Of a DNA stretch of 55,642 nt, positions 7,800 through 20,575 are shown piece by piece. Each line of letters opens with the position of its first letter. The stretch's first letter is position 1. The stretch spans positions 1-55,642 of the forward strand of contig JBBCAV010000131.1 in assembly GCA_051382305.1 (NCBI GenBank), in the 5' to 3' direction. The position numbers were made by a program, and so were the translations under genes. The notes under the pieces are model-generated. The model saw only the letters and a list, made by a program, of their open reading frames with translations, did no database searches and was not told where the DNA came from. This DNA comes from Bdellovibrionota bacterium FG-2 (lineage in GTDB: Bacteria > Bdellovibrionota > UBA1018).

Positions 7800-8111
7800 A
7801 TGATTGGTTATGGAACCAGTTTTAATTCCTTTTCCGAAACGCTCCTCGCCATGAGCCAGAGAGCCAAATCACTAAGGCTAACCCAAAACTGGACCCAACA
7901 GGAGATCGCCGATCGCTCGGGCGTTGGCGTTGCCACGATCCATCGCTTCGAAAAGACGGGACAGGTTTCAATCGAAAACGCACTGCGAATTGCGACCGCA
8001 CTAGGCGTCGAAGCCACGTTTGAGCGGCTCTTTGAAACGCCAAAATACAAATCACTCGATGAGGCATTAGGGCCCTCCACCACATCGACGAGAAAGCGCG
8101 CTCGAAAATGA
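7800..8111 (+). CDS. XRE-family HTH antitoxin (HipB-like)
   Basis: WTQQEIADRSGVGVATIHRFEKTG HTH; ATGA overlap with hipA. Confidence 0.88.
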   Translation: MIGYGTSFNSFSETLLAMSQRAKSLRLTQNWTQQEIADRSGVGVATIHRFEKTGQVSIENALRIATALGVEATFERLFETPKYKSLDEALGPSTTSTRKRARK

Positions 8112-9349
8112 AAATTGAAAAAGGCCTCAAGCCCGTCACGCTCTTGAATGTGCATCTTGAACTAGAGGGAACATCAAAGCGCAAAGTGGGGATGCTCGCA
8201 AAGAAGGACCGCGAACTTCTTTTTGAATATGACCACGAGTTTCTACAAAGTGGCTTAGAGCTCTCGCCTTTTTGCCTCCCCCTCAAATCTGGCGTCACAG
8301 TCGGAGATCCCTCCGTTTTTCAAGGGCTGATGGGTGTTTTCGAGGACAGTCTACCCGATGGTTGGGGCCGTTTACTCTTAGACAGACGGATCGCACAGGC
8401 TGGGCTTTCTCCGGCAAGTTTTGGCCCGCTTGATCGCCTGGCCTTTGTCGGTTCACATGGGATGGGTGCTCTCGTCTACGAGCCTGAGATAGAGCAGATC
8501 ACACCAACCGTTGTCGACCTCAATCAGGTTGCTTTGGAGATTCAAGGCGTGCTTAATCACACGGACATAAAGGAACTTGATCGACTGCTCGCACTAGGCG
8601 GCTCACCGCAGGGCGCACGCCCCAAGGCTCTTGTACAATTAAGCTCAGACGGGAAAATAGTCCTCTATGGCGCACAAGCCATTCAACCCGGCTTCGTACC
8701 CTATCTCGTCAAGTTTAGATCCAAGGGGGACGACGAACACACTGGAACCCTCGAGTACGTTTATGCCCGAATGGCAGCCCTTGCCGGAATCGACCTTCCC
8801 GAGACGCGCCTCCTGGGACGAAAGAAGAATCGCCCTGGCTATTTTGCTATTCGGCGCTTTGATCGCGACGGCGGAAACAAATTACACAATCATACGCTTT
8901 CGGGGTTACTGCAGGCGCCCCACACTTATCCCGCTCTGAGTTACCGCGAACTTCTACTCGCAACTCGCAAGCTCACGAGAAGCGAAAAGTGCGTTTCGGA
9001 GATGTTTCGGCGCGCTTGTTTCAATGTCTTCGCCAAAAACCGAGATGATCATGCTCGGAACTTTAGTTTCCTCATGGACGCAAATGGAAACTGGCGCCCC
9101 AGCCCGGCCTACGATTTGACCTACTCTAGCGGCCCCGGAGGAGAACACATGATGCTCGTTGCAGATGAAGGACGAAATCCCACAACGCAACACCTTAAGG
9201 CACTCGCTCACGAAGTGGGCCTCAAACACCCAGGCCCAATCATTGAAGAAGTGCGAGCGGCGGTCAGCCAATTCGAAGCACTCGCGATAGAGGAAAAACT
9301 CCCAAAGAAACTGCGCGATACAGTGGGCCGGGCGCTTTTCGTACAGTAA
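8108..9349 (+). CDS. hipA: Type II TA system HipA-family kinase toxin
   Basis: DSLPDGWGR (HipA-N), GSPQGARPKA, NRDDHARNFSF, SPAYDL. Confidence 0.93.
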   Translation: MKIEKGLKPVTLLNVHLELEGTSKRKVGMLAKKDRELLFEYDHEFLQSGLELSPFCLPLKSGVTVGDPSVFQGLMGVFEDSLPDGWGRLLLDRRIAQAGLSPASFGPLDRLAFVGSHGMGALVYEPEIEQITPTVVDLNQVALEIQGVLNHTDIKELDRLLALGGSPQGARPKALVQLSSDGKIVLYGAQAIQPGFVPYLVKFRSKGDDEHTGTLEYVYARMAALAGIDLPETRLLGRKKNRPGYFAIRRFDRDGGNKLHNHTLSGLLQAPHTYPALSYRELLLATRKLTRSEKCVSEMFRRACFNVFAKNRDDHARNFSFLMDANGNWRPSPAYDLTYSSGPGGEHMMLVADEGRNPTTQHLKALAHEVGLKHPGPIIEEVRAAVSQFEALAIEEKLPKKLRDTVGRALFVQ

Positions 9350-9384: not shown

Positions 9385-10701
9385 TCACGCTGCCTTGTCT
9401 TGTTGCGCAGCAGGCAGCGTCACACTTGAAACCCCAAAACGCTGCTCCAACGCCACGATTCTCGCCTCAGTATTGGGATGGACCTTCGCACGCATATGAA
9501 GCCGTCCCAAAGTCTTGACGTGCCGACCTTGAAAATTCAGAAGATCTAGCTTACGAAGCGCATTAACCAAATCATTGGAATTAGCGCCCAGCTTCTCTAC
9601 CGCATAGCGATCCGCTTCTTGTTCAAACTGAAGATTCTTTTGGCCCAAGAAACGAAAACACACAAAAAATGAACCCATCGCAATGAGGCCACCCCAGAGA
9701 AACGACGAGCCTGACCGAGTGACAAGAAACACGAGAAGATTCAGTGCAATTGACGCAAAAGCTAGACTCAAAATCAACGCGACGGAAAAGAGCAGTCTCC
9801 GTCTTAAGTGCCGAAGGGCTATGTGAGCGGCTTCGTGATCAATCACGGCTCGCAACTCATCGCCATTTAAGACTCCAATAAGAGTTTTGGAGACAAGAAG
9901 AAGGGGACGAAAAATCCACCGCCCCCACGAAAACCCGGCGACAAGCGCGGTCGCACTATCCATCCGATCAAGATCAAAAATACGAAGCTCGGGCCGCGCT
10001 AGCTTCGCTTTAGAAAAAGTATCGTTCACCGCGCTCGAAACGACCGCTTCTTCACCCTGCTCTGAGGGCACCTTTATAGGGAGCGTTTTGCGCAAGAAAA
10101 AAGGCGCCAACGCAAAGTTCACAAAGAGCCCGCCGCCAATTCCAAAAATCCCGCCTAGGATTACTAGGATCAAAGTCACCTCGCGTCCAGCCTGAACCCA
10201 CACGGCCAACCCCAAAGCAACTCGGACCGACAATAACATGACGCCCAGATAAATCACGGCTCCGAACGCCGCGCCCATAAAAACTTTTGTGGCAAGCCCG
10301 AACGCTAAAGTAGGGCGCGCACTGCGGAGAGCCCCGGAAGCCTGCGACCCCTTTGTTTCAAAGCGCTTCTCCAGCCTAGCCTGGATCCAGCCTTGTCCCA
10401 AGACCGCTGCGAGGAACAAAAGATTGGCCGAAACAGGAAACACCTTGCGCACCTCGCCTGTTCCTAGAAAAAGGACAAACTGAAACAGTAGAACGCAAAA
10501 GCCGGTCAAACGAACACGCTGAAGCTCATGATCCTTATCATACTCCGGCTCGCCTTCGGGCGCGCCTTTGCCCTCTCGTCCCAGCTGCTCCAGATAGCGC
10601 CCAAAATAGTCGGCCCAAAGTGCGAACAAGACAACCGGAATGGCCGTCAAAATCGCGACACCCCTCATTGCAATTTGTGGATCAAGTGCGTCCAGTTCCA
10701 T
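9385..10701 (-). CDS. M48-family membrane zinc metalloprotease
   Basis: Multiple TM segments, ELRAVIDHEAAH (HExxH), EQEADRYA, HPNTEARI. Confidence 0.88.
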   Translation of the reverse strand: MELDALDPQIAMRGVAILTAIPVVLFALWADYFGRYLEQLGREGKGAPEGEPEYDKDHELQRVRLTGFCVLLFQFVLFLGTGEVRKVFPVSANLLFLAAVLGQGWIQARLEKRFETKGSQASGALRSARPTLAFGLATKVFMGAAFGAVIYLGVMLLSVRVALGLAVWVQAGREVTLILVILGGIFGIGGGLFVNFALAPFFLRKTLPIKVPSEQGEEAVVSSAVNDTFSKAKLARPELRIFDLDRMDSATALVAGFSWGRWIFRPLLLVSKTLIGVLNGDELRAVIDHEAAHIALRHLRRRLLFSVALILSLAFASIALNLLVFLVTRSGSSFLWGGLIAMGSFFVCFRFLGQKNLQFEQEADRYAVEKLGANSNDLVNALRKLDLLNFQGRHVKTLGRLHMRAKVHPNTEARIVALEQRFGVSSVTLPAAQQDKAA

Positions 10702-10708
10702 ACCTATG

Positions 10709-10735
10709 TCTTCGGCAAGACTCTCCGAAATATGA
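10709..10735 (-). promoter_or_regulatory. Possible sigma28-type promoter for the M48 gene
   Basis: Minus strand TCAT-N15-GCCGAAGA, 7 nt before the ATG. Confidence 0.5.
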
Positions 10736-10761
10736 AGGGGAAAAGCAGCTCAAAATAAGTC

Positions 10762-10788
10762 TAAAGACAGTTAGTTAAATTCCGAAGA
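10762..10788 (+). promoter_or_regulatory. Possible sigma28-type promoter for the motor-like operon
   Basis: TAAA-N15-TCCGAAGA. Confidence 0.5.
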
Positions 10789-10832
10789 GCTTACTGGGGA
10801 AGGAGACTCGGGTCTCTCACCACGGACATATA

Positions 10833-11927
10833 ATGGACTTTTATAAGAAAACAAAGAGCGCAGTCGGTGTATCACTCAGAATCCTTCTTGGATTGAGCGG
10901 GCTCATGTCCACAGGGCATGCCGCCGATAAGCCTCCTGAGCGCAACTTTTATGAGGTATTGGACGATCTAATGTCTGACTTTGAATATGACCTGAAAAAC
11001 GGAAACGTCTCGGGCATGCGAGACCTCTCCATTCGAAATGTGGGCATGAGCGAAAACATCCCCGCTTCATTCAAGCCCCATCTTGAACTTCTCGTCACCG
11101 AGAAGATCATGAAGAATATGAAAACACGGGTTATTCAATGCCTGCCTTGTCGCGCGAAGCGCACAACACTTAATGGCGATCAAGTCGTCATTACTTCTCC
11201 CGAAACCAACCCTTCGGAGCTCGCACGAATTGCAAAACTTTCAGGAATTCAAAATTTTCTCGACATCTCGTTTTCCTATCAACCCAACGGTCTGATCCTA
11301 TCGATGTATGTCTCAGAGCCCGAATCAGGCTCCATCGTTTGGTCGCGAAGTTACAACTCCGAGACCTCACGCGCCTCGGCGTTTAGAAGAGGCGTTGACT
11401 ACTCGCAAGTCGACGACGCCCGCAAGTTCACCGAATATGTCCCCGGCATTCAGTATCGACTGACCATCTACTACTTCTTTGAACCCAATGTTCCCAAAAC
11501 CACCGGTTGTCTCGGGGGCGGACTCAGGATGATGGAACGCTATGATAATCGGAAGAAAGAAGTCGGCTTCGAATTTGACTACATTAAGGATGCCTCGACA
11601 CTTGTCAACTCTGCTGCGGCTACCACCGCAAATTTATGGTCGGGAATCAATGTTACCCTTCTCTTTATGCACTCCTGGAACCTTATTGGAGATGAGGAAA
11701 ACTTTAACAAAGTTCGAAGTAATATCTTTTTAGGCATCGGAGGTACTTATACCTCCGGCTTTTTGGGCGGCTTAGGACGAGGCGGTTTTGAATGGCGCCT
11801 AGGCAAACACTTTGCGGTGTCTGCCAACGTAGGCTATCGGCCGGAGTCCACCGTGTTTATTCCACTTTCAACGGGATCAACAGTCAAGGGGGGCGAGTAC
11901 GGTTTAGGGATTGGGTATCTTTTTTAG
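10833..11927 (+). CDS. Exported protein: CsgG/FlgO/LpoB-like N-domain plus C-terminal outer-membrane beta-barrel
   Basis: Leader ending GHA; alpha/beta pattern ending LILSMYVSEPESGSIVWSRSY; alternating Gly/aromatic strands ending YGLGIGYLF. Fold assignment by eye. Confidence 0.6.
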   Translation: MDFYKKTKSAVGVSLRILLGLSGLMSTGHAADKPPERNFYEVLDDLMSDFEYDLKNGNVSGMRDLSIRNVGMSENIPASFKPHLELLVTEKIMKNMKTRVIQCLPCRAKRTTLNGDQVVITSPETNPSELARIAKLSGIQNFLDISFSYQPNGLILSMYVSEPESGSIVWSRSYNSETSRASAFRRGVDYSQVDDARKFTEYVPGIQYRLTIYYFFEPNVPKTTGCLGGGLRMMERYDNRKKEVGFEFDYIKDASTLVNSAAATTANLWSGINVTLLFMHSWNLIGDEENFNKVRSNIFLGIGGTYTSGFLGGLGRGGFEWRLGKHFAVSANVGYRPESTVFIPLSTGSTVKGGEYGLGIGYLF

Positions 11928-11946
11928 ATTTTTTAGGGAGGCTTGA

Positions 11947-12741
11947 GTGCAAACAGGTTTGAGGATTGCAGCATTGATCATCGCGGTGAGTATGAGCGGG
12001 GCTTCTTGTAGCACGCTTCGCTCGCTCTTTGCGTTGGACAGTGGAAAGAAGCAAGCCTCGGCTCCCATTGAAAATCCATTTGGAGAATATTACCCGGGCG
12101 CCCAAGCAGAGCTACATCAAAACATGATCCTTCGAACTAAAAAGGGGGATCGCTCAATCGAACTTGAACTTCCGAAGAGCCACCAGGAGATGTCCGATTT
12201 AGTGATTCCGGTAAATCCTGCATTTAACGACGGAAGAAGCGCCGCCTTTTCCAGTTCTATCAGCCCCTCTACGGTAACCGGTCCAGAAATGTCCACCGAT
12301 GGGTTGATTGACGAAAGCTATCGCGCGCGCGCGCCCGGCCTGAGCGATCGGGAACTGACACAAGCCATGCCCACTAATCTTGCAGAAGACGACGCCAAGA
12401 GAAGAGAAGTTGAACAAAGCATGGGACTCGTGCCTTCGGATACGGGAGTGCCCGTAAGGGAGAACAGTTATCTCGCGGCCATTGATCACATCAAACAACT
12501 TTATAAATATGGTCGAATTGAAGCGGCGCTTCTGGAACTTGATGAACTTCTCCGACTCTACCAAACGGATCCAAAACTTTACTCCATGAGGGGGACGCTG
12601 CTTGATCGGCTTGGAAAGTCGGAACTTGCACTTAAGTCATGGAACCAATCCCTACGATTCGATCCCTCTAACAATGGTCTCAAACAATTCATTGAACGCC
12701 GACAACAACGCACACCGGCAGGGGGGACTGGGGTAAAATGA
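11947..12741 (+). CDS. TPR-containing lipoprotein
   Basis: Lipobox-like GASC; TPR pattern LYSMRGTLLDRLGKSELALKSWNQSLRFDPSN. Confidence 0.85.
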   Translation: MQTGLRIAALIIAVSMSGASCSTLRSLFALDSGKKQASAPIENPFGEYYPGAQAELHQNMILRTKKGDRSIELELPKSHQEMSDLVIPVNPAFNDGRSAAFSSSISPSTVTGPEMSTDGLIDESYRARAPGLSDRELTQAMPTNLAEDDAKRREVEQSMGLVPSDTGVPVRENSYLAAIDHIKQLYKYGRIEAALLELDELLRLYQTDPKLYSMRGTLLDRLGKSELALKSWNQSLRFDPSNNGLKQFIERRQQRTPAGGTGVK

Positions 12742-15089
12742 CAAAACTCAAAACCCTCTTCACCATTGCTCTCGTAACTCTAACGACGCTCGCACTTTCA
12801 ACGGCTGCAAGCGCGGGCCCCGGGAAGTTTAATGCCGCCGAGATTACCCGCACGACGACGGAAAACCAAATTCGCAATTTGCTTGAGCCCCTCTTGGCCA
12901 AATACTGTAGAGATGAATGCAAACTCCTTTCCGTATCCGCGACTGTAGATGTCGCCGTGCCCGAAGAACTCGCCCCCGGTTTTGATGACCTCACGCCCGC
13001 CAATACGCTTTCTCTTGCGGCCTCTTCTGCACGCGTGAAGATTCTTGTGGACGAAAAGGTTGGTCCCGTTTCTCGTGGGCGACTCGTCGATATGATTCAG
13101 CAGTATTTGGACACGCTCGAATTTCAGGTGAAGCTCGATGTCCAATACAAACCCTTTCCCCAGCCTTTCGGTTCCGACGCCAAGATCTCAGACCTCAGGG
13201 ACCGAGTTTCCAAACAATTTAGGAATACGATCCAAGAGATTTTTCAGCAGTTCTGCCCGGATAACTGCCTCCTAGGGGACTTCAACCTCAAGGCCGAAGC
13301 AGTCAACGCCGAAGAAGCCCAGTTTGGGTCGTCTACCGAATTTGTACAAGACGGAGCCTTGGCTCTGAAAATTCGCGAGATATCCGCCACACTCATTTTA
13401 GACGAAGAGCTCCCACCCGAAGAACGCGCCAACATTTTAGAATTAGCCAAACTCAAAACGAACTACCTCAAAAACGTCACGCTTAACGCCATGCCGATTA
13501 AGTTCCCCCGGCCCGACAAGACGGCTATTTCGGGCGCGAGAGAGAAAGCACTGCAGGCCAAGCAAAAAACTTCCGAGAGCAATAGCGCAAGCACGACTGC
13601 AAAGACCGAAAACAACGCAAACACCAATGCGAGCACGACCGCAAAGACCGAGAACATCAGCAATAACAATAATAACGAGAAGAACGAGAGATCAGAGGTC
13701 ATCAAGAGAACCGAAATCATCGAGCGGGTAGAAAATGGCGATGCCTTAAAAGAAGAATTTAAGCAAATGCGGGTCTTTGGTCTCATCTTCGCGTGCTCCG
13801 TTATTTCACTTCTTCTCTTCCTGGCGGTGGCGGGCTTTCGCCCTCGCACCTCTTCTGGTCCCAGCGGGGGCTCTGTCCATCGCGTGATTCAAAGCCTCGC
13901 GGCAGATCCGATTTCTTCAAACGCGCCATCGACCTATCGCGCCCCAGATCCAGTTGCACCCCACGAAGAGCTGCGCGTCCCCGCGCTCTCCAAACGTTAT
14001 GAAATTGAACGCCTTGTCGAAGAACTAACGGCTATCTTTGCCCAGCAACCGAAGGTTGCCAAACAAGTTTTCACACGCATCCTGACCGAGGAGGGCATCG
14101 AGACTACGGCCGAGTACATTCATATTTTTGGCGAAGGCATTGTGCTAGACATGGTTCGAGACCCCAGCCTTCAAACCGATGTCATTGGTTTGATGGAGTT
14201 CTACTCGAAGAACACCATCGAAATCACCGATGATGAAAAACTTGAACTTCTACGAAAACTCCATAACCGAACCATTGCCGGGAAACTCACGGTCCTTGGT
14301 AACCGCTCCTCGTCCATGTTTGATTTTCTTACAGAGATGGATGGACCCCAAATTATTGAAATGCTTCGTGGTGAATCTGACACCTTGAAGTCGATCGTCC
14401 TTACGCAATGCGATCCCCAAAAGCGTGCAGCAGTCTATGCCCAACTTGATGATAAGACGCGACTCAAACTTCTCACTGAACTTTCTCGAATTGACTATCT
14501 GCCGAAGGACTTTATCTACAATGTGGCCAGCGCCTTGAAACGCAAACGTCGCGACAATCCAAGACTCAACACCGAAGCACTCCCTGGGTCTGAAGTCCTC
14601 GTGGGACTCTTGGAGAGAACGAGCGCCGAAATGCAGCGTACCGTAATTCGAAATCTTGAAATGGCCAGTCCGGAAAGTGCACGGACAGTGAAGAGTAAGC
14701 TTGTCAGTATTGAAACGCTGCGTTTCTTACGAGACAGTCAACTCCTCGAGGTGGTCCTCAATCTCAAGCACGACGAACTCTTGATCTTTTTGAAGGGTGC
14801 CTCGGCTGAAGTTCGCAACGCCGTATTTTCAAAATCACCTAAAGAACTTGTTTTTGAGCTTGAAGAGGAGCTCGGCGGACTTGGCACAATTAGCCGCGAA
14901 GACTATCAAGGCGTTGAACGCAAGATTCTCAATCGCATGAAGATGATGGCAACGGAGGGGCTAGTAAACCTTGTCGAAACCAATGACCGACTCTTCTCAG
15001 AAACAAAGGGGGGTTCGGGGTTTGTTGAGGCGGGTCCAAACGCAGGAGGCCGTGGTGCGCAATCAGGCTCTTCACGGAAGGTCGCATGA
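12738..15089 (+). CDS. Membrane-anchored FliG-domain protein (FliF-like periplasmic repeats + TM + FliG N/M/C)
   Basis: Signal peptide ...AASA; two ~116-aa repeats with CxxxC; TM aa 346-367; FliG-M-like FDFLTEMDGPQIIEML...; FliG-C-like LLIFLKGASAEVRNAVF...KILNRMKMMATEGLVNL. Confidence 0.8.
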   Translation: MTKLKTLFTIALVTLTTLALSTAASAGPGKFNAAEITRTTTENQIRNLLEPLLAKYCRDECKLLSVSATVDVAVPEELAPGFDDLTPANTLSLAASSARVKILVDEKVGPVSRGRLVDMIQQYLDTLEFQVKLDVQYKPFPQPFGSDAKISDLRDRVSKQFRNTIQEIFQQFCPDNCLLGDFNLKAEAVNAEEAQFGSSTEFVQDGALALKIREISATLILDEELPPEERANILELAKLKTNYLKNVTLNAMPIKFPRPDKTAISGAREKALQAKQKTSESNSASTTAKTENNANTNASTTAKTENISNNNNNEKNERSEVIKRTEIIERVENGDALKEEFKQMRVFGLIFACSVISLLLFLAVAGFRPRTSSGPSGGSVHRVIQSLAADPISSNAPSTYRAPDPVAPHEELRVPALSKRYEIERLVEELTAIFAQQPKVAKQVFTRILTEEGIETTAEYIHIFGEGIVLDMVRDPSLQTDVIGLMEFYSKNTIEITDDEKLELLRKLHNRTIAGKLTVLGNRSSSMFDFLTEMDGPQIIEMLRGESDTLKSIVLTQCDPQKRAAVYAQLDDKTRLKLLTELSRIDYLPKDFIYNVASALKRKRRDNPRLNTEALPGSEVLVGLLERTSAEMQRTVIRNLEMASPESARTVKSKLVSIETLRFLRDSQLLEVVLNLKHDELLIFLKGASAEVRNAVFSKSPKELVFELEEELGGLGTISREDYQGVERKILNRMKMMATEGLVNLVETNDRLFSETKGGSGFVEAGPNAGGRGAQSGSSRKVA

Positions 15090-15607
15090 ACCCCGTCACG
15101 CCGCTCACAGCAAGAATCAAGCCCTCCGTTTCGGTTTTGAAAAATATTCGACTCTTGAAAGTCTTTAGCGATCAGGAACTCTCCAGCCTCATTCAACACG
15201 GAGAAGGCATGGCCTGCGAAGCTTATAATAACATAGTAATCGAAGGCGAAATGACCTGGGGCCTGTATCTCATCTTGGATGGCATGGTCGGCGTCTACAA
15301 ACGAAACAAACTTACCGGCGTGGACTACGATGTCGGACAATTGCGAACCGGCAACTTCTTCGGAGAAATGTCTCTCGTCGACGAATACCCGCGCTCTGCC
15401 ACCGTACGAGCGCTATCGGATTGCCAACTTTTTTCGATAACAAAAGAAGGTTTTCAACAATTCCTTTCGAAGAATCCGAGCTCAAAATCCAAATTTTTTG
15501 AGAGTTGCGTAGAGACCCTGGTCCACCGACTTCGGGAGTTGGACGAGAACTACGTCATTAGTCAATACCAGCTTTGGAAAACAGCGCTCAAAAAGGAGGC
15601 GGCTTAA
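15086..15607 (+). CDS. Stand-alone cyclic-nucleotide-binding domain protein
   Basis: GNFFGEMSLVDEYPRSATVRA phosphate-binding cassette; no HTH. Confidence 0.92.
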   Translation: MNPVTPLTARIKPSVSVLKNIRLLKVFSDQELSSLIQHGEGMACEAYNNIVIEGEMTWGLYLILDGMVGVYKRNKLTGVDYDVGQLRTGNFFGEMSLVDEYPRSATVRALSDCQLFSITKEGFQQFLSKNPSSKSKFFESCVETLVHRLRELDENYVISQYQLWKTALKKEAA

Positions 15608-15608
15608 C

Positions 15609-16391
15609 ATGAACTTTTCATCCCTTTTTGGACTTAGCTTTGGCGCTTACATCATGTACTACGCGCTCAGTAGCTCCGGACCGGGCCTTTCGACCTTTCT
15701 TGATCTTCATGGTTTCATGATTGTTTTCGGGGGAACAGCGGCCGCAGCGAGCATTAGTTTTCCGTTTGGCAAAGTACTGTCCCTGATCAAAGTCTTTATC
15801 CTGCGCGTCCTAGGCCGCTATAAGGCCGATTACCAAGGCGTGATTACCCAGCTCTTGGAGCTTAATAAGAAGGCGAGTTCCGGTGTGACCGGGTTAGGCG
15901 AAGCACTGCCCGGGATCAAAAACGAATTCCTCAAAGAAGCAGTGGGGCTTGTCTCCTCCGGTGTGCTGACGGAGGTCGAAATTCGCGCAGCCTTGGAACA
16001 ACGACTTAAGACGGTAGAAGCGCTTTTTATGAAGGAAGCAAATATGTTCCGCACTATCGGGCGCTTTCCTCCTGCCTTTGGACTGCTCGCGACCACCCTG
16101 GGGATGATCAGCGTTTTGCAGCAGATGGGGCAACCCGAAGCGCAGAAACTCATCGGTCCCGCGATGTCTATCGGATTGATTGGAACTTTGTACGGGATCA
16201 CGCTAGCGAATATGGTGTTTCTCCCGATTGCCGAGAATTTGTCCGAGCGCACTCACGAAGAAGTTATGTTGCGAAAGGTTATTATCGAAGGGGCGTTGAT
16301 GCTCAAGGCGCAAGTTAATCCGATTTCGATGAGAGAGAATTTGAATTCGTTCTTGTTGCCTAAGGACCGAGTGGTTCGAAAAGCCGCTTAA
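15609..16391 (+). CDS. motA: MotA/PomA-family stator protein
   Basis: MIVFGGT, FPPAFGLLATTLGMI, GTLYGITLANMVFLPIA, QVNP. Confidence 0.93.
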   Translation: MNFSSLFGLSFGAYIMYYALSSSGPGLSTFLDLHGFMIVFGGTAAAASISFPFGKVLSLIKVFILRVLGRYKADYQGVITQLLELNKKASSGVTGLGEALPGIKNEFLKEAVGLVSSGVLTEVEIRAALEQRLKTVEALFMKEANMFRTIGRFPPAFGLLATTLGMISVLQQMGQPEAQKLIGPAMSIGLIGTLYGITLANMVFLPIAENLSERTHEEVMLRKVIIEGALMLKAQVNPISMRENLNSFLLPKDRVVRKAA

Positions 16392-16403
16392 GAGGAGAGA
16401 ACC

Positions 16404-17180
16404 GTGTCTGTCGCCAAGTCATTTTTGAAGCTAGTCAAGAAGGGAGAAGCGCGAATTGAGCGCCGGCGCAGCAACGACGTGCCGGAGCAAGCAGCAGACG
16501 ATGAATCGAATTGGCTCGTATCCTATGCAGACATGATGACTTTGCTTTGTGGCTTCTTTATCATGATGTTCAGCATGTCCAAACTCGATGCGCCCCAGTT
16601 TGAGCCTGTGCGAGAGGCCGTAGCAAAGCAGTTTGGCGGAGATTTCAAATCCCCTACCAAAGCGTTGGCCAAGTTTGTGTCACAAGTGCTTGACCAAAAC
16701 GGAACGGACAAACAAGCCATTCTGAAATCTGATCCGTATGGCGTGACAATTGTTTTCAAATCGACCGTATTTTTTGACAGCATGGGTGCAGACATGAGAC
16801 CCGAAGGACGCGCGGTGCTCGTGAAACTCGTTGAGTCTCTCGCATCTCGTCAAGAGATGGAGATGAAGAAATATAAGATCGTGGTCGAGGGTCACACCGA
16901 TAGCCGGCCCGTCGTCAGTGGTCCTTACCCTTCCAATTGGGAACTTTCAGCTTCAAGAGCGTCAAAAGTCTTACGCCTGTTTCTTGATCGCGGCTTTTCG
17001 CCTTCACCCCTCACCGCCATAGGCTATGCGGATAGCCACCCGATTGCTGACGCACGACTTCCAACTGGTGAACTGAACGAAGACGCAATGAACCAGAACC
17101 GACGAGTTGTCGTACGCGTTTTGGAACCAAAAGTGGACGCGATTCCCATGCCAGATGGGCCGGCAACTACTGCCCATTGA
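16404..17180 (+). CDS. motB: MotB/PomB-family stator protein
   Basis: WLVSYADMMTLL with the conserved Asp; OmpA-like domain EGHTD, SNWELSASRA, GYADSHP, NRRV. Confidence 0.95.
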   Translation: MSVAKSFLKLVKKGEARIERRRSNDVPEQAADDESNWLVSYADMMTLLCGFFIMMFSMSKLDAPQFEPVREAVAKQFGGDFKSPTKALAKFVSQVLDQNGTDKQAILKSDPYGVTIVFKSTVFFDSMGADMRPEGRAVLVKLVESLASRQEMEMKKYKIVVEGHTDSRPVVSGPYPSNWELSASRASKVLRLFLDRGFSPSPLTAIGYADSHPIADARLPTGELNEDAMNQNRRVVVRVLEPKVDAIPMPDGPATTAH

Positions 17181-17226
17181 CGGCGCGAGGAATTCCCTAG
17201 AAACTTATGATTGGGGGAACCGTGTC

Positions 17227-18120
17227 ATGCGATGGAGCTGTCCTCATTGTGCTGCAAACTTAGCCGTTACAGATGAGAAATTGGGATCAGGCTGGTCTTT
17301 TTCACGTTGTTACAAATGTGGAGGATTTGCTTTGGTGAGAAGGTCAGATGTGAACCTCATCAAAGTAGATAAGGCGCCAGCAGGGGAGCACGTCCTGCTA
17401 CCTGAGCCGTCTGAAGATCCCATTTTGGGTCAACAGGCTGCAGATCGTTTGGGAAAATATATTGGCACCAAGACAATGCCAAAAAATATGGGGCCTATCA
17501 CGCATATTGATGGCAAAACAACCTTTCCCCCACCGCTCCCGGAACTTACCGAACTTGTGACTTCGCCGCCGCCACTGCCTCCTCCTCCCGCGGCTCGCGA
17601 TTGGACTCGAGCTATTCTTCCGACTGCCATCGGAATTGCCGGCATCATGGCAATCGGCTCGGGCGTTTACATTTACTGGAAGGGCGAAGCCCTTTATGAA
17701 CGCGCAAAAATAGCGGCAAAAACTGAAACCCTTCGTAACGAAAGCGCAAAACCTGCACCAGTTTCGTTCACAGAAAACAACGACGTAGTGAGAGCACCAT
17801 CCATGCCCCTTACTGATCAAGTTCATCAAAATGCGATGGCCCCTACTCGTGTTAATACACCGGAGCCCGTGCCACCGCCCACAGTGGCCGCAGTAGCGCC
17901 GGAATCTGCACGAATGAAAATTAGAGCAAGACTGGCCGCAAAACTCCACACCGGCCCAGGTCTGGAGTTTCCCGTCGTCGGGGTTGCAAATCCCGAGACC
18001 ACTTATCCGGTGATCGACTGGAGCAATCGTTGGTTCAAAATTTCACTCCCAGGTGAGACCGGCGAAAAGTCCAAGAACCAAGCGTGGATTCGCAATGATC
18101 TCATTCAGCTCGTGCAATAA
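17227..18120 (+). CDS. Zinc-ribbon / Pro-rich / TM / SH3b-like protein
   Basis: CPHC...CYKC at the N-terminus (MJ0042-like); one TM; LHTGPGLEFPVVG...WFKI...AWI SH3b pattern. Start moved to ATG 17227. Confidence 0.8.
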   Translation: MRWSCPHCAANLAVTDEKLGSGWSFSRCYKCGGFALVRRSDVNLIKVDKAPAGEHVLLPEPSEDPILGQQAADRLGKYIGTKTMPKNMGPITHIDGKTTFPPPLPELTELVTSPPPLPPPPAARDWTRAILPTAIGIAGIMAIGSGVYIYWKGEALYERAKIAAKTETLRNESAKPAPVSFTENNDVVRAPSMPLTDQVHQNAMAPTRVNTPEPVPPPTVAAVAPESARMKIRARLAAKLHTGPGLEFPVVGVANPETTYPVIDWSNRWFKISLPGETGEKSKNQAWIRNDLIQLVQ

Positions 18121-18127
18121 TTAATCG

Positions 18128-19624
18128 CTATCGAAGAAGACATTTCCAGATATCAATTTGCTTTGCAGGATAATTCCATCGAGATCCCTGCAGTTTCCAG
18201 AATTTTTCACACCTCGCATTCGGAAACATAGGTGGAGCATCATATCGATTATCACTAATATATAGGACGGGTTTGATGAGCCTGGGCCAAGCAGGCCCTA
18301 CTCCATCAGAGACCGAGAGAGGGCGCCATTCATCTCGGGCCCGCGTCTCTCGGGGAATCCAACTCACAACATTGCGTCCCTGAAGTGCAAACGACGCCTG
18401 TGAGGCCGTTTGATAGCGCGAGGCAAGAACGGGCCAGTGACTCGAAGCTGGATCAAGTTTGCCATTCACTTGATCGTCAAAAAAAGCAGGGAGCTTTGAC
18501 CACCCATACAGATCATTCGTTACATCCAGTCGGGGATCAGGGTTTCTCGAAAGCGCCTGCATCAGGACACCCCCGAGAGGAACAACACAACTCACTAGCA
18601 CAAATGCAGAAACCACTACTGCCTGACCCGTTTGAAAAAAGGCCAATCGTCTAATCAGCCCTGCCTGAAAATTATGATGATAACAGTAAACAAAAGCGAG
18701 CAGTGTTGGCCACCAAACGATGAGGGCCCAGTGGGGTTTGAAATCTGAAAAGATCGGCTGAATAAGGAACACGATCGCGGCAGGAAGAATCCAAACCCAT
18801 AAAAATTTAATCGGTTGTGCCACTCGACTAGGGTTCCGGACGAAGTTGAACAAAGAGAAAAAGAAAAACCCAATCAAAGGCAGACCCGCCAGAAGTCCTT
18901 GCGCGCCCCAGAAACGAAGGGCACGAACCCCAGAAGCGCCGCCCCCTCCGGCATGACGCTCCTGGATTTGATAAAGAATCGAGGCCCATTCATGAGTCGA
19001 GTTCCAATAGAGAATCGGCACAAACCCCAAAATACTTGCAGATAAGACAAGAATAAATCCCGCCTTCAAACGTGGCCGCGGCGCAAATAACAAAATACTC
19101 AGCAGGGCTGAAGCAATCGCAAGTAAGCCTGAATATTTTGAAAGGACCAGAAAAAGCCCCCCCCCAAAAAGAAGAAGTTTCGTAGGGAAGGACAGCCGCT
19201 CTTCAAAACAAAGACCAAAGGTTCCAACCAAAGCGGCGGTGAAGCCAAAGAACAGGGGGAGATCAGGCACCATCATCCAAGAAAGCGCAAAAAAGCCAGG
19301 AAAAGATAGGAGCAATACCCCGGAGAATCGGGTGAGCAAAACTCCAGTACTTCGCAACCAGGCTAACCCTAACGCGAGGCTCGAAGCAGCAAAAAAGGCG
19401 GCAGGAAACCGGACGACCATCACGGAGTTAGGACCAAAAATCGGCCCCAACAAAAACTGAGAAACCGTGATACTCCATGCGACTGCCGGGGGATGATAAG
19501 CATACCCCAGTGCGGGATTCTGGGCCAAGACCCAATAATAAGCTTCGTCATCCGTGAGACCAAATAGTTGCCCAAAAAGAAGTATGAGGAAAAAGAAAAC
19601 TAGGGGCAACCAGCGCCGTGGCAT
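18128..19624 (-). CDS. ArnT/PMT-like (GT-C fold) membrane glycosyltransferase
   Basis: DDEAYYWV, YAYHPPAVAW, VRFP, PDLP, LSKYSG; many TMs. Confidence 0.88.
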   Translation of the reverse strand: MPRRWLPLVFFFLILLFGQLFGLTDDEAYYWVLAQNPALGYAYHPPAVAWSITVSQFLLGPIFGPNSVMVVRFPAAFFAASSLALGLAWLRSTGVLLTRFSGVLLLSFPGFFALSWMMVPDLPLFFGFTAALVGTFGLCFEERLSFPTKLLLFGGGLFLVLSKYSGLLAIASALLSILLFAPRPRLKAGFILVLSASILGFVPILYWNSTHEWASILYQIQERHAGGGGASGVRALRFWGAQGLLAGLPLIGFFFFSLFNFVRNPSRVAQPIKFLWVWILPAAIVFLIQPIFSDFKPHWALIVWWPTLLAFVYCYHHNFQAGLIRRLAFFQTGQAVVVSAFVLVSCVVPLGGVLMQALSRNPDPRLDVTNDLYGWSKLPAFFDDQVNGKLDPASSHWPVLASRYQTASQASFALQGRNVVSWIPRETRARDEWRPLSVSDGVGPAWPRLIKPVLYISDNRYDAPPMFPNARCEKFWKLQGSRWNYPAKQIDIWKCLLR

Positions 19625-19627
19625 CCC

Positions 19628-20575
19628 CTACCCCTCAGTGTGTTTCGGTTTTCGAGACGCGAAATCTGGAACCGTAAACTCAATCATCGTTCGAATCCCC
19701 GTGCTAAAGCGTTTCCAATAGGCTTCGGCCTTTTTTGGATCGGCAGAAGGAAGCTCTAAAGTCAGCGTAGGAATTCCCTGTTCATGTCCCGCGTAGTTTC
19801 CCAGTGAACCGGGAAAATAGCCCGAAGAAATCGCTTTCAGCTTTTTCCGCAACGCCAAACACTCGTGCACATACGCTTTTGAAAAGCGCGCAAGCGACAA
19901 GGGCGTGGGCCCATCATAATCAATAAAATTTAGAGGCGCATGCACCGAAAGAAGCTTCTGGGGTTGAAACGTCTTAATCAGATCTTCTTGAAAATGGGTC
20001 TCAGGTTCAGAGCGCGGTTTTTCTCCAGGAAAACGTCGCAGATCCGAACGAAATTTCGTTTTCCAGGCCAGAATGGCCGTTGTATCCCAATCTCGGGTGA
20101 GAAAGTTACGGTTCACATCCACCCCATGGGCATTCACGCGGGTTCTGGGTTTCTTAAAAAAACTATCCGGATTTACGAGAGGGGCAATAATCACATGAGC
20201 CTTCGGAAATCGCTTCTCGTTGTCTTTCATCCAATGGGCGAGTTGAATGCCTAAAAAAAGCGGGGTGATCTCATCTCCATGGGCCATCGAAAAAATGAGC
20301 GTCGTATTTTTGGAATTCACGTCGCCGAATTCTGCATATACCAAGGGCCGGCCCAGAACAGAATGCCCCGCAGTTTTCCATTCCAACCCTTCGCAGGGCT
20401 TAATTTTCCACTTAAGCGCCACAAAAGACTTCGACAGGGCTTCGCACCACTGCTGAATCTCGGTTTGTTCTTTTTCGGGGCCGGGTTCTTGAGCAAAAAC
20501 ACAAGTCGGGGCCTGAGAAAAGAGCAGAAGCGCGACAATAAAAGAGCTAAGAATATTTCGAACGATCATATGCAA
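19628..20575 (-). CDS. M14 zinc carboxypeptidase, murein peptide amidase MpaA-like, exported
   Basis: HGDE, NPD, RVNAHGVDVNRNF, SEPET, SVH, TLELP; signal peptide. Confidence 0.85.
   Translation of the reverse strand: MHMIVRNILSSFIVALLLFSQAPTCVFAQEPGPEKEQTEIQQWCEALSKSFVALKWKIKPCEGLEWKTAGHSVLGRPLVYAEFGDVNSKNTTLIFSMAHGDEITPLFLGIQLAHWMKDNEKRFPKAHVIIAPLVNPDSFFKKPRTRVNAHGVDVNRNFLTRDWDTTAILAWKTKFRSDLRRFPGEKPRSEPETHFQEDLIKTFQPQKLLSVHAPLNFIDYDGPTPLSLARFSKAYVHECLALRKKLKAISSGYFPGSLGNYAGHEQGIPTLTLELPSADPKKAEAYWKRFSTGIRTMIEFTVPDFASRKPKHTEG

Follow-up and report, generated by a model that had tools for sequence, protein, structure and literature searches.

A candidate flagellum-independent rotor–stator module built from flagellar motor parts in a Bdellovibrionota genome

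Can the rotor–stator pair of the flagellar motor work outside a flagellum? The question is raised by seven genes, g1 to g7, at positions 10833–18120 of a 55,642-nucleotide contig of Bdellovibrionota bacterium FG-2 (GTDB lineage Bacteria; Bdellovibrionota; UBA1018; assembly GCA_051382305.1, contig JBBCAV010000131.1), referred to here as the window. To our knowledge, all known uses of the FliG–MotAB torque pair are flagella; other 5:2 ion motors (Ton, Tol, Gld, Agl and Zorya) use other partners. The seven genes include a single chain in which a FliF-like ring-building region is joined to FliG domains, together with a MotA/MotB-type stator pair and proteins of the outer envelope. The region is probably a flagellum-independent rotor–stator module built from flagellar motor parts. 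The genes are listed below with the evidence for each assignment.

10833..11927, + strand: g1, outer-membrane protein (AlphaFold2 (AF2) model, synteny)
11947..12741, + strand: g2, probable tetratricopeptide repeat (TPR) lipoprotein (conserved Cys, TPR match below cut-off, synteny)
12738..15089, + strand: g3, rotor candidate of 783 residues, a fusion of ring-building motifs (RBMs) with FliG (Pfam, AF2 model, fold searches)
15086..15607, + strand: g4, stand-alone cyclic nucleotide (cNMP)-binding protein of 173 residues (PF00027)
15609..16391, + strand: g5, MotA/PomA-type stator A subunit of 260 residues (MotA_ExbB, structure-sequence matches)
16404..17180, + strand: g6, MotB-type stator B subunit (MotB_plug, OmpA, invariant Asp43)
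17227..18120, + strand: g7, zinc ribbon/SH3-like accessory protein (frame opens at 17107, likely start ATG at 17227)

The seven open reading frames (ORFs) are co-oriented and tightly packed. A preliminary description of this DNA had reported such spacing, with ATGA overlaps at 12738 (g2/g3) and 15086 (g3/g4), and both overlaps are read directly in the sequence. The remaining intergenic gaps are 19, 1, 12 and 46 nt when the start of g7 is taken as the ATG at 17227. A scan of the region for promoter and terminator consensus sites gave counts at or below the expectation from shuffled sequence.

The fused rotor candidate and its stator

The N-terminal 372 residues of g3 were modelled with 38 homologues (mean predicted local distance difference test score, pLDDT, 77). 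In the model a signal peptide precedes two RBM units of α-β-β-α-β topology, at residues 33–137 and 146–254. These are followed by a low-complexity spacer rich in Ser, Asn and Thr at about 262–325, disordered in the model at 278–325, and by a single transmembrane (TM) helix at about 345–366 that lies within a long helix. FliG N (part), M and C domains occupy about 464–744, a region that aligns with residues 43–326 of the full-length Aquifex FliG structure 3hjl. FliG_M scores 28.8 bits (cut-off 25) and FliG_C 57.8 bits (cut-off 23.3) in Pfam, which together with the single TM helix bears out the earlier assignment of an inner-membrane protein with FliG domains. All 38 of the g3 sequences share four cysteines (two CxxxC motifs, one per RBM), a PGF motif and the stretch EKIERVENGDA just before the TM helix, all invariant.

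Foldseek searches with the N-terminal model returned FliF MS-ring chains as all seven of the top matches (E 5e-7 to 4e-6). A fold search independent of Foldseek also placed FliF first (8z5v, Z 11.0, root-mean-square deviation (rmsd) 2.1 over 96 residues; 6scn, Z 10.4 over 172 residues; 8z4d, Z 9.9), with generic ferredoxin-like domains behind it and then SpoIIIAG, PrgK and other ring-building proteins (Z 7–9). The g3 RBMs are most like RBM2 and RBM3 of FliF. Since both searches rank FliF first and FliG domains are present, g3 is best described as a short FliF-like ring former fused to FliG. Structure 8z4d also appears among the sequence matches of g3 and belongs to a set of engineered Salmonella/Vibrio FliF–FliG fusions (8z4d/8z4g; excerpts of PMC10941966). 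Like g3, these constructs hold a ring-forming FliF part and FliG in one chain, and their existence supports the feasibility of such a fusion. They differ in being laboratory constructs with full-length FliF that operate within a flagellum; g3 is natural, far shorter, highly divergent and encoded outside a flagellar cluster.

The FliF/YscJ family is marked by PF01514, by RBM1–3 with a β-collar and by two TM helices, whereas the Pfam search found no YscJ_FliF (PF01514) in g3 and the model has two RBMs and one TM helix. Going by the model, g3 would be FliF-like in its working and not a sequence member of the FliF/YscJ family. Against the FliG equivalog TIGR00207 g3 scores 63.6 bits (cut-off 226.7), and its Pfam FliG domains pass; it appears to carry FliG domains without being a FliG orthologue. 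Compared with the flagellar core, the module shares the FliF-like RBM folds, FliG N/M/C, an A subunit of PomA/MotA type and the plug, Asp and OmpA-like domain of the B subunit. It differs in having the FliF-like and FliG parts in one chain with two RBMs (one in the form found in Bradymonadales), one TM helix behind a cleavable-looking signal peptide, a spacer of 40–91 residues and no YscJ_FliF. The set also has no export gate, rod, hook, filament or switch genes, which most Myxococcota carriers lack as well, and includes its own outer-membrane barrel and TPR lipoprotein.

The FliG domain of g3 is diverged. In the flagellum the EHPQR motif of FliG_M binds FliM. Six canonical FliG sequences aligned here (four from Bdellovibrionota) read NEHPQT or KEHPQT at this motif, which is named in excerpts of PMC6290876, and EHPQ is replaced in all three subfamilies of the fusion: by ES[LDI]T in the window's subfamily, by E-x-x-[QRT]-x-Q in the second, and by residues without conservation in the Bradymonadales subfamily. 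Excerpts of PMC12505986 describe E. coli FliG R281, D288 and D289 as pairing with MotA E98 and R90. The torque helix of g3 retains an acidic pair (EE in ELEEEL) but is acidic at the R281 position, and the charge pattern of this helix differs again in the other two subfamilies. The MFVFE stretch of Thermotoga FliG, presumably the switching hinge, aligns with LVSIE in g3.

A quick maximum-likelihood tree of the FliG M+C region (64 rows, with 13 of the 14 canonical rows from one phylum) unites the 14 canonical FliG sequences at the end of a long branch that excludes every module FliG domain (Shimodaira–Hasegawa-like approximate likelihood ratio test, SH-aLRT, 100). The FliG domains of the window's subfamily form their own group (SH-aLRT 100), which is joined to the second tier of fusions described below (91). 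With most canonical rows drawn from one phylum and long branches adjoining each other, no more can be read from the tree than that the module FliG is not a recent copy of the host's own fliG. As the module FliG domains stand apart from all canonical FliG sampled, the module could represent a sister lineage of the flagellar motor core and not something derived from it late on.

The stator genes are closer to their flagellar counterparts. MotA_ExbB scores 70.1 bits in g5, which can be aligned end to end with the MotA of C. sporogenes (9e-30) and the PomA of Vibrio (5.5e-29), and g6 has a TM helix, MotB_plug (59 bits) and OmpA (54.5 bits) domains and matches in the PDB. Asp43 and an NWELSxxRA stretch of g6 are invariant in 23 of 23 sequences; the essential Asp and the peptidoglycan-binding domain reported earlier for MotB are both present. 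Adjacent A and B genes, alignment to solved MotA and PomA, plug, Asp and OmpA-like domain place the pair with MotAB/PomAB. The best NCBIfam models for g5 are MotP, PomA and MotA, all under their equivalog cut-offs (142.5 versus 394); the equivalog scores of g6 likewise fall short, and g5 and g6 are divergent members. The TolQ model gives g5 an E-value of 0.035 versus 1e-41 for MotP, and a quick MotA tree separates the plug-type stators from the genome's TolQ/ExbB-like paralogues (SH-aLRT 94).

Because g6 also matches ZorB models (1.9e-19) and g4 the cNMP-binding parts of Pycsar effectors (1e-10), an anti-phage defence system of the Zorya kind, with a MotAB-like motor, was considered. It is scarcely credible: the ZorB and Pycsar matches are generic domain matches, g5 has 260 residues with no ZorA match and no long tail, and the genes keep their chromosomal neighbourhood throughout an order. 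Searches of g1, g2, g3 and g7 brought up no ZorC/ZorD-like or other defence model, and the set does not have the make-up of a Zorya system.

A gene set conserved in two phyla, with and without flagella

In the protein collection g3 has 201 full-length relatives, and the 120 matches listed are 50–81% identical. The named relatives on that list, from metagenome-assembled genomes of Bdellovibrionales, Bdellovibrionota and Oligoflexia, are called hypothetical, 'flagellar motor switch protein FliG' or 'FliG C-terminal domain-containing'. A profile of the g3 N-terminal domain was searched in 400 genomes of the phylum, with matches distributed as follows.

Window's order, all families: 68 of 91 genomes
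Family f1: 49 of 57 genomes
Family f3: 12 of 17 genomes
Seven small families: 7 of 7 genomes
Families f5, f6 and f7: 0 of 10 genomes
Largest family of the phylum: 0 of 100 genomes
Second largest family of the phylum: 0 of 53 genomes
Rest of the phylum: two weak matches with one RBM

In this sample the N-terminal domain was found only in one order apart from the two weak one-RBM matches, and its absence from the two largest families shows that the host is not a classical Bdellovibrio. The preliminary description had mentioned the several motAB pairs of B. bacteriovorus; the host is not like that species.

Synteny was examined in 20 loci from 20 genomes, spanning 10 families of this uncultured order. 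In every one of them g1, g2, g3, g5 and g6 occur in the same order and on the same strand, with intact ORFs of similar length; g4 adjoins the fusion in 17, and a g7 match occurs in 16, of which 15 are downstream of motB. A gene order that recurs in 20 of 20 related loci is beyond chance. The conservation of the genes together, proposed as a check on the locus, is seen in this order and again, rearranged, in a second phylum. The g7 protein itself was matched in none of the 26 one-RBM loci searched (L068 and 25 from Bradymonadales) and is probably a lineage-specific accessory, judging by its sequence distribution.

When 1.84 billion representative proteins were searched with the profile of the N-terminal domain, 161 matches came up, which fall into three tiers; ten proteins were sampled from the two distant ones, and every one has FliG_C at its C-terminal end. 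One of these forms has a single RBM, about 550–620 residues and RLCPGRCEL and PGFE motifs. Two other Bdellovibrionota families carry it in the order g1-like, TPR, MotA, MotB, one-RBM fusion; the g1 homologue in the distant cluster L067 is 25% identical to that of the window (E 1e-28). Contigs from one genome per species were then scanned with 14 closer fusions as queries, which gave 25 loci, all titled Bradymonadales, Bradymonadaceae, Lujinxingiaceae, Persicimonas, Myxococcales, Myxococcota or similar and including the cultured Lujinxingia vulgaris TMQ2. In all 25 of these Bradymonadales/Myxococcota loci the gene immediately upstream of the fusion encodes MotB. Of the 17 with a full 8 kb of flank, all have TPR and MotA genes and 16 have a g1-like gene. 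Six of the 25 have a g4 homologue 1.5–5 kb past the fusion, which in two of the six is encoded on the other strand. In L. vulgaris, which is non-flagellated, the stator is likewise PomA-type (PomA 6e-26 versus TolQ 3e-3).

In L. vulgaris TMQ2 (L089:1002-4378, 9800-12335) tightly spaced ORFs lacking Pfam matches lie to either side of the five genes and share their strand, with lengths of 796 and 329 residues upstream and of 368, 183 and 284 residues downstream; the 368-residue ORF starts at the stop of the fusion. A cNMP-binding protein is encoded 3.4 kb beyond the fusion.

The second tier comprises fusions of 720–990 residues with two RBMs, one member being named Silvanigrellales. A g4 homologue (36–42% identical) follows the fusion in nine of the 15 loci with at least 600 nt downstream. 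These fusions (L111–L133, e.g. L124:5360-10927) are preceded by genes for a YkuD-type L,D-transpeptidase and a DsbA-like thioredoxin protein, and the latter neighbour is suggestive in view of the four invariant periplasmic cysteines of the fusion.

Could the module nevertheless serve the flagellum, as an additional stator set with a FliG-like membrane protein that stores, recruits or regulates flagellar stators? The window's genome (85% complete) does encode canonical FliG, FliF, FlhA, six rod/hook and seven flagellin matches, all on other contigs. Three further plug-type MotB proteins, also on other contigs, bring the total to four; the window therefore does not hold the genome's only fliG/motAB set, a possibility that had been named as fatal to the idea of a separate motor. 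Canonical FliG is likewise found in nearly all carriers of the window's order, and the stator is of flagellar type. A flagellum is recognised by co-occurring export gate, rod, hook and filament genes, and none of these is on the contig: Flg_bb_rod, Flagellin_N, FHIPEP, YscJ_FliF and any further FliG_C are all encoded elsewhere, in keeping with the earlier remark that the window has no other flagellar genes (FliM and FliN were outside this search).

Evidence against a flagellar accessory comes from genomes in which module and flagellum are uncoupled. The one-RBM fusion occurs in 20 of 301 sampled Myxococcota genomes (E < 1e-50), and in 16 of these 20 carriers no match to the rod/hook family Flg_bb_rod is found, so that the module's occurrence in non-flagellated genomes, one of the checks first suggested for it, is realised. 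Exactly one MotB_plug protein is encoded in 15 of the 16; it lies beside the fusion in 14, and in the remaining genome (G530) the two are on separate contigs. Each of the four carriers with a flagellum encodes three or four plug-type MotB proteins, one of them beside the fusion. Closer inspection of five genomes showed that four have neither a flagellin above cut-off nor a canonical FliG, and the sole YscJ/FliF-family match in those four is a short SctJ-like ORF. Conversely, eight of 57 genomes of the window's own family have canonical FliG without the module. The existence of both rod-less carriers and flagellar genomes without the module indicates that the module is neither needed for the flagellum nor dependent on it. 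An accessory role would also have to accommodate a gene set that always includes its own outer-membrane proteins and a rotor candidate that has lost the FliM-binding motif, and we regard it as distinctly improbable.

A decaying flagellar remnant without present function might be proposed on the grounds that the FliG, MotA and MotB equivalog scores are far under their cut-offs. This is very improbable given the intact ORFs of similar length and unchanged order in 20 of 20 loci, the recurrence in a second phylum, and the invariance of the MotB Asp, the peptidoglycan-binding motif and the four g3 cysteines. The g1 protein, which has 340 homologues, none with a Pfam domain, is 59–91% identical among the 120 matches listed.

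Two observations on other FliG-like frames may be recorded here. The window's genome has a third such frame of at most 206 residues that contains little beyond FliG_C (93.6 bits; C66:8426-8719; L002:1189-1806), and in L002 its torque helix is near canonical (PKRAGDLLREE...GPQR). The flagellated one-RBM carrier G403 (L107, C12:108128-110539) has, among rod genes, an 865-residue frame with full YscJ_FliF and canonical FliG_C, an apparent natural fusion of true FliF and FliG.

Envelope partners and how the module may work

The AF2 model of g1 (pLDDT 84.5) comprises a signal peptide, a periplasmic α/β domain at about 36–175 with an invariant CxxC at C103/C106, and a C-terminal eight-stranded β-barrel at 205–363. 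By sequence the outer-membrane barrel reported earlier falls below threshold (OMP_b-brl 13.7 bits, cut-off 28.7); it emerges in the model, whose barrel matches NspA (Z 16.4), OprF-N (Z 15.7), OmpW (Z 14.8) and also OmpA within a range of Z 14.5–16.4. The N-terminal domain resembles the C-domain of LpoB (Z 10.5, rmsd 4.0 over 130 residues), and its top Foldseek matches are to TolB (E ~2e-6).

In g2, conserved N-terminal motifs (PIxNPF and the β-hairpin-like ILRTKKGDRSVEVELP) are followed by a disordered middle and a short C-terminal TPR domain whose matches are all below the Pfam cut-offs (TPR_2, 23.4 bits versus 27). At least 90% of 23 homologues keep Cys21, which follows a signal-like N-terminus. 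The designation as a lipoprotein made earlier is plausible on this basis, though only that. Complex prediction of g2 with the periplasmic part of g3, the g1 N-domain and the periplasmic part of MotB gave 0.05 against a mark of 0.32, which is uninformative either way.

The g4 protein has a PF00027 cNMP_binding domain (61.9 bits) and no DNA-binding domain. In g7 a TIGR02098 MJ0042-type zinc ribbon (23.5 bits, cut-off 20.9) is followed by a Pro-rich stretch, a TM helix and an SH3-like C-terminus (SH3_3, 23.9 bits, under the cut-off of 27). Its likeness to the GltJ equivalog NF033761 is limited to 21 bits over the zinc ribbon, with a cut-off of 450. Agl-Glt of Myxococcus and GldLM of Bacteroidota resemble the module as envelope-spanning sets with an ion motor, outer-membrane barrels and TPR proteins, but they have TolQR-like or GldLM motors without a FliG-type rotor, and the resemblance of g7 to GltJ is weak.

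How could these parts act together? By analogy to FliF, the g3 RBMs would oligomerise into a periplasmic ring, with one TM helix joining each subunit to a cytoplasmic FliG-like domain. The g5 and g6 proteins would form a PomAB/MotAB-type 5:2 stator, gated by the plug and fixed to peptidoglycan through the OmpA-like domain of g6, in which ions passing the invariant Asp would make MotA rotate against the g3 torque helix in FliG_C, so driving the ring. As the EHPQR motif is lost and the set has no switch, export gate, rod or filament, the rotor would be a bare and probably one-directional ring. The long low-complexity or Pro-rich spacer may hold the RBM ring well away from the inner membrane, so that it could meet g1 and g2 at the outer membrane, where these would be load or scaffold. 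In Vibrio the MotX/MotY T-ring and in Campylobacter PflA/PflB provide TPR/Sel1-like and outer-membrane- or peptidoglycan-anchored proteins that work with MotAB/PomAB stators around the flagellar rod. The g1 and g2 proteins could, by this analogy, have a similar periplasmic stator-scaffold role, although the searches run here gave no sequence or fold match to MotX/MotY or PflA/PflB. The g4 protein may couple the motor to cAMP or cGMP, as other small effectors act on FliG or MotA. Ring formation, rotation, the contacts with g1, g2 and g4, control by cyclic nucleotides and the cellular output are what we infer from these components; if an output is to be guessed, we favour one at the surface or in the envelope, for example surface motility or prey contact.

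The preliminary description had envisaged a self-contained trans-envelope motor. A rotor candidate, a stator and a conserved gene set are found, and the trans-envelope part derives from topology and synteny. Secretion, one of the functions suggested for it, is unlikely through g1 as modelled because the eight-stranded barrel is small, without a pore-sized lumen. A more ambitious version falls somewhat short of an even chance and is offered tentatively: an autonomous rotary nanomachine, the sole user of a FliG-type rotor besides the flagellum, in which a MotAB-spun ring would drive g1 and g2 through the spacer under cNMP control, for surface movement or prey contact in predators.

The spacer and the envelope proteins also suit a Ton/Tol-like energy transducer, in which MotAB would pull or twist g3 by way of its FliG-like domain and the spacer would carry the force through the periplasm to g1 and g2, with no steady turning of a rigid ring, for envelope integrity, outer-membrane tethering or uptake. 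TonB and TolA have comparably long spacers, and Tol-Pal includes a TPR protein and an OmpA-like peptidoglycan binder. The spacer has a median of 72 residues in the window's subfamily, with 52% Ser, Thr, Asn, Gln or Gly (36 of 38 sequences parsed), and a median of 51.5 residues with 30% Pro in the Bradymonadales form. The g1 N-domain is like those of TolB (its N-domain) and LpoB, the g1 barrel is of the small anchor type, and the set has a TPR protein and an OmpA-like peptidoglycan binder of its own. With Tol-Pal/Ton (TolQR/ExbBD, TolA/TonB, TolB, Pal and CpoB) the module thus has in common an ion motor, a long periplasmic spacer, outer-membrane partners, the g1 fold, the TPR protein and the peptidoglycan binder. 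Its motor, in contrast, is a plug-bearing MotAB type, coupled via a FliG domain rather than via a TM helix inside the motor, and neither a TolA/TonB-like C-terminal domain nor a TolB propeller was seen, which sets it apart from Tol-Pal. FliF-like ring-building folds and a complete FliG with torque helix point to a tangentially driven ring, and the A subunit is PomA/MotA-type and separate from the TolQ/ExbB-like paralogues. A transducer is considered unlikely.

Several observations weigh against the rotor–stator reading. A flexible stretch of 40–91 residues between ring and membrane would transmit torque poorly, and the g3 spacer fits a Ton/Tol-like tether as well as a rotor. The g1 barrel is too small for a channel or bearing. 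Contacts of the module with the outer membrane and among its parts are proposed from topology and synteny. At the torque helix, the position of E. coli R281 is Glu or Asp in the window's subfamily, with a conserved Lys just before it, and the MotA partner residues align approximately, with an uncertainty of about two residues. The MotA tree, in which row L110 is the module's own copy in G403 and not a flagellar one, does not resolve the plug-type stators among themselves, nor the module stators as one clade; with its base unresolved the tree is silent on a single origin of these stators. The 23 second-tier metagenome loci have no MotA, MotB, g1 or g2 within 8 kb, which indicates that the rotor gene can stand apart from a dedicated stator. 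Finally, flagella are present in the majority of carriers from the window's order, and a link to the flagellum is possible in that lineage.

If the flagellum-independent rotor–stator module is real, it would be a new machine made from flagellar parts (rotor ring, FliG and stator) with its own outer-membrane proteins, which persists in bacteria without flagella. It would also be a minimal natural rotor–stator system of five genes with a fused 1:1 FliF-like:FliG chain. Both the minimum needed for rotor assembly and stator recruitment, and whether the rotor–stator core was at one time, or later became, independent of the flagellum, become testable with it. A sister relationship to the flagellar core would bear directly on the origin of the flagellar rotor–stator pair. 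Since L. vulgaris TMQ2 is a cultured carrier, genetics and cryo-electron tomography are feasible.

The core set, present in predatory bacteria without flagella, looks like an undescribed envelope motor. The full-text literature searched, exclusive of supplements and including excerpts of PMC12505986 and PMC13277936, holds no description of the gene set. Those excerpts of PMC12505986 classify MotAB homologues without mention of a FliG fusion. A figure legend of PMC7460792 refers to 'predicted components of flagella' in bradymonabacterial genomes, without analysis in the accompanying excerpt, and bradymonabacterial movement is ascribed to type IV pili in excerpts of PMC11509652.

Flanking genes

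The flanks of the region are non-flagellar and encode an M48 peptidase on the opposite strand, a HipA-like kinase, a polytopic membrane protein without a Pfam match, an M14 carboxypeptidase and a VTT/DedA protein. Adjoining the module on the − strand at 18128–20575 are the polytopic membrane protein, of 498 residues, and the M14 carboxypeptidase-like protein. Each of the two genes recurs in 15 of the 20 related loci, which may be plain lineage synteny. On the other side, the HipA-like kinase gene at 8108–9349 (HipA_C, 151.9 bits) overlaps the end of a 103-residue ORF at 7800–8111, and the two together (7800–9349) look like a HipBA-type toxin–antitoxin pair.

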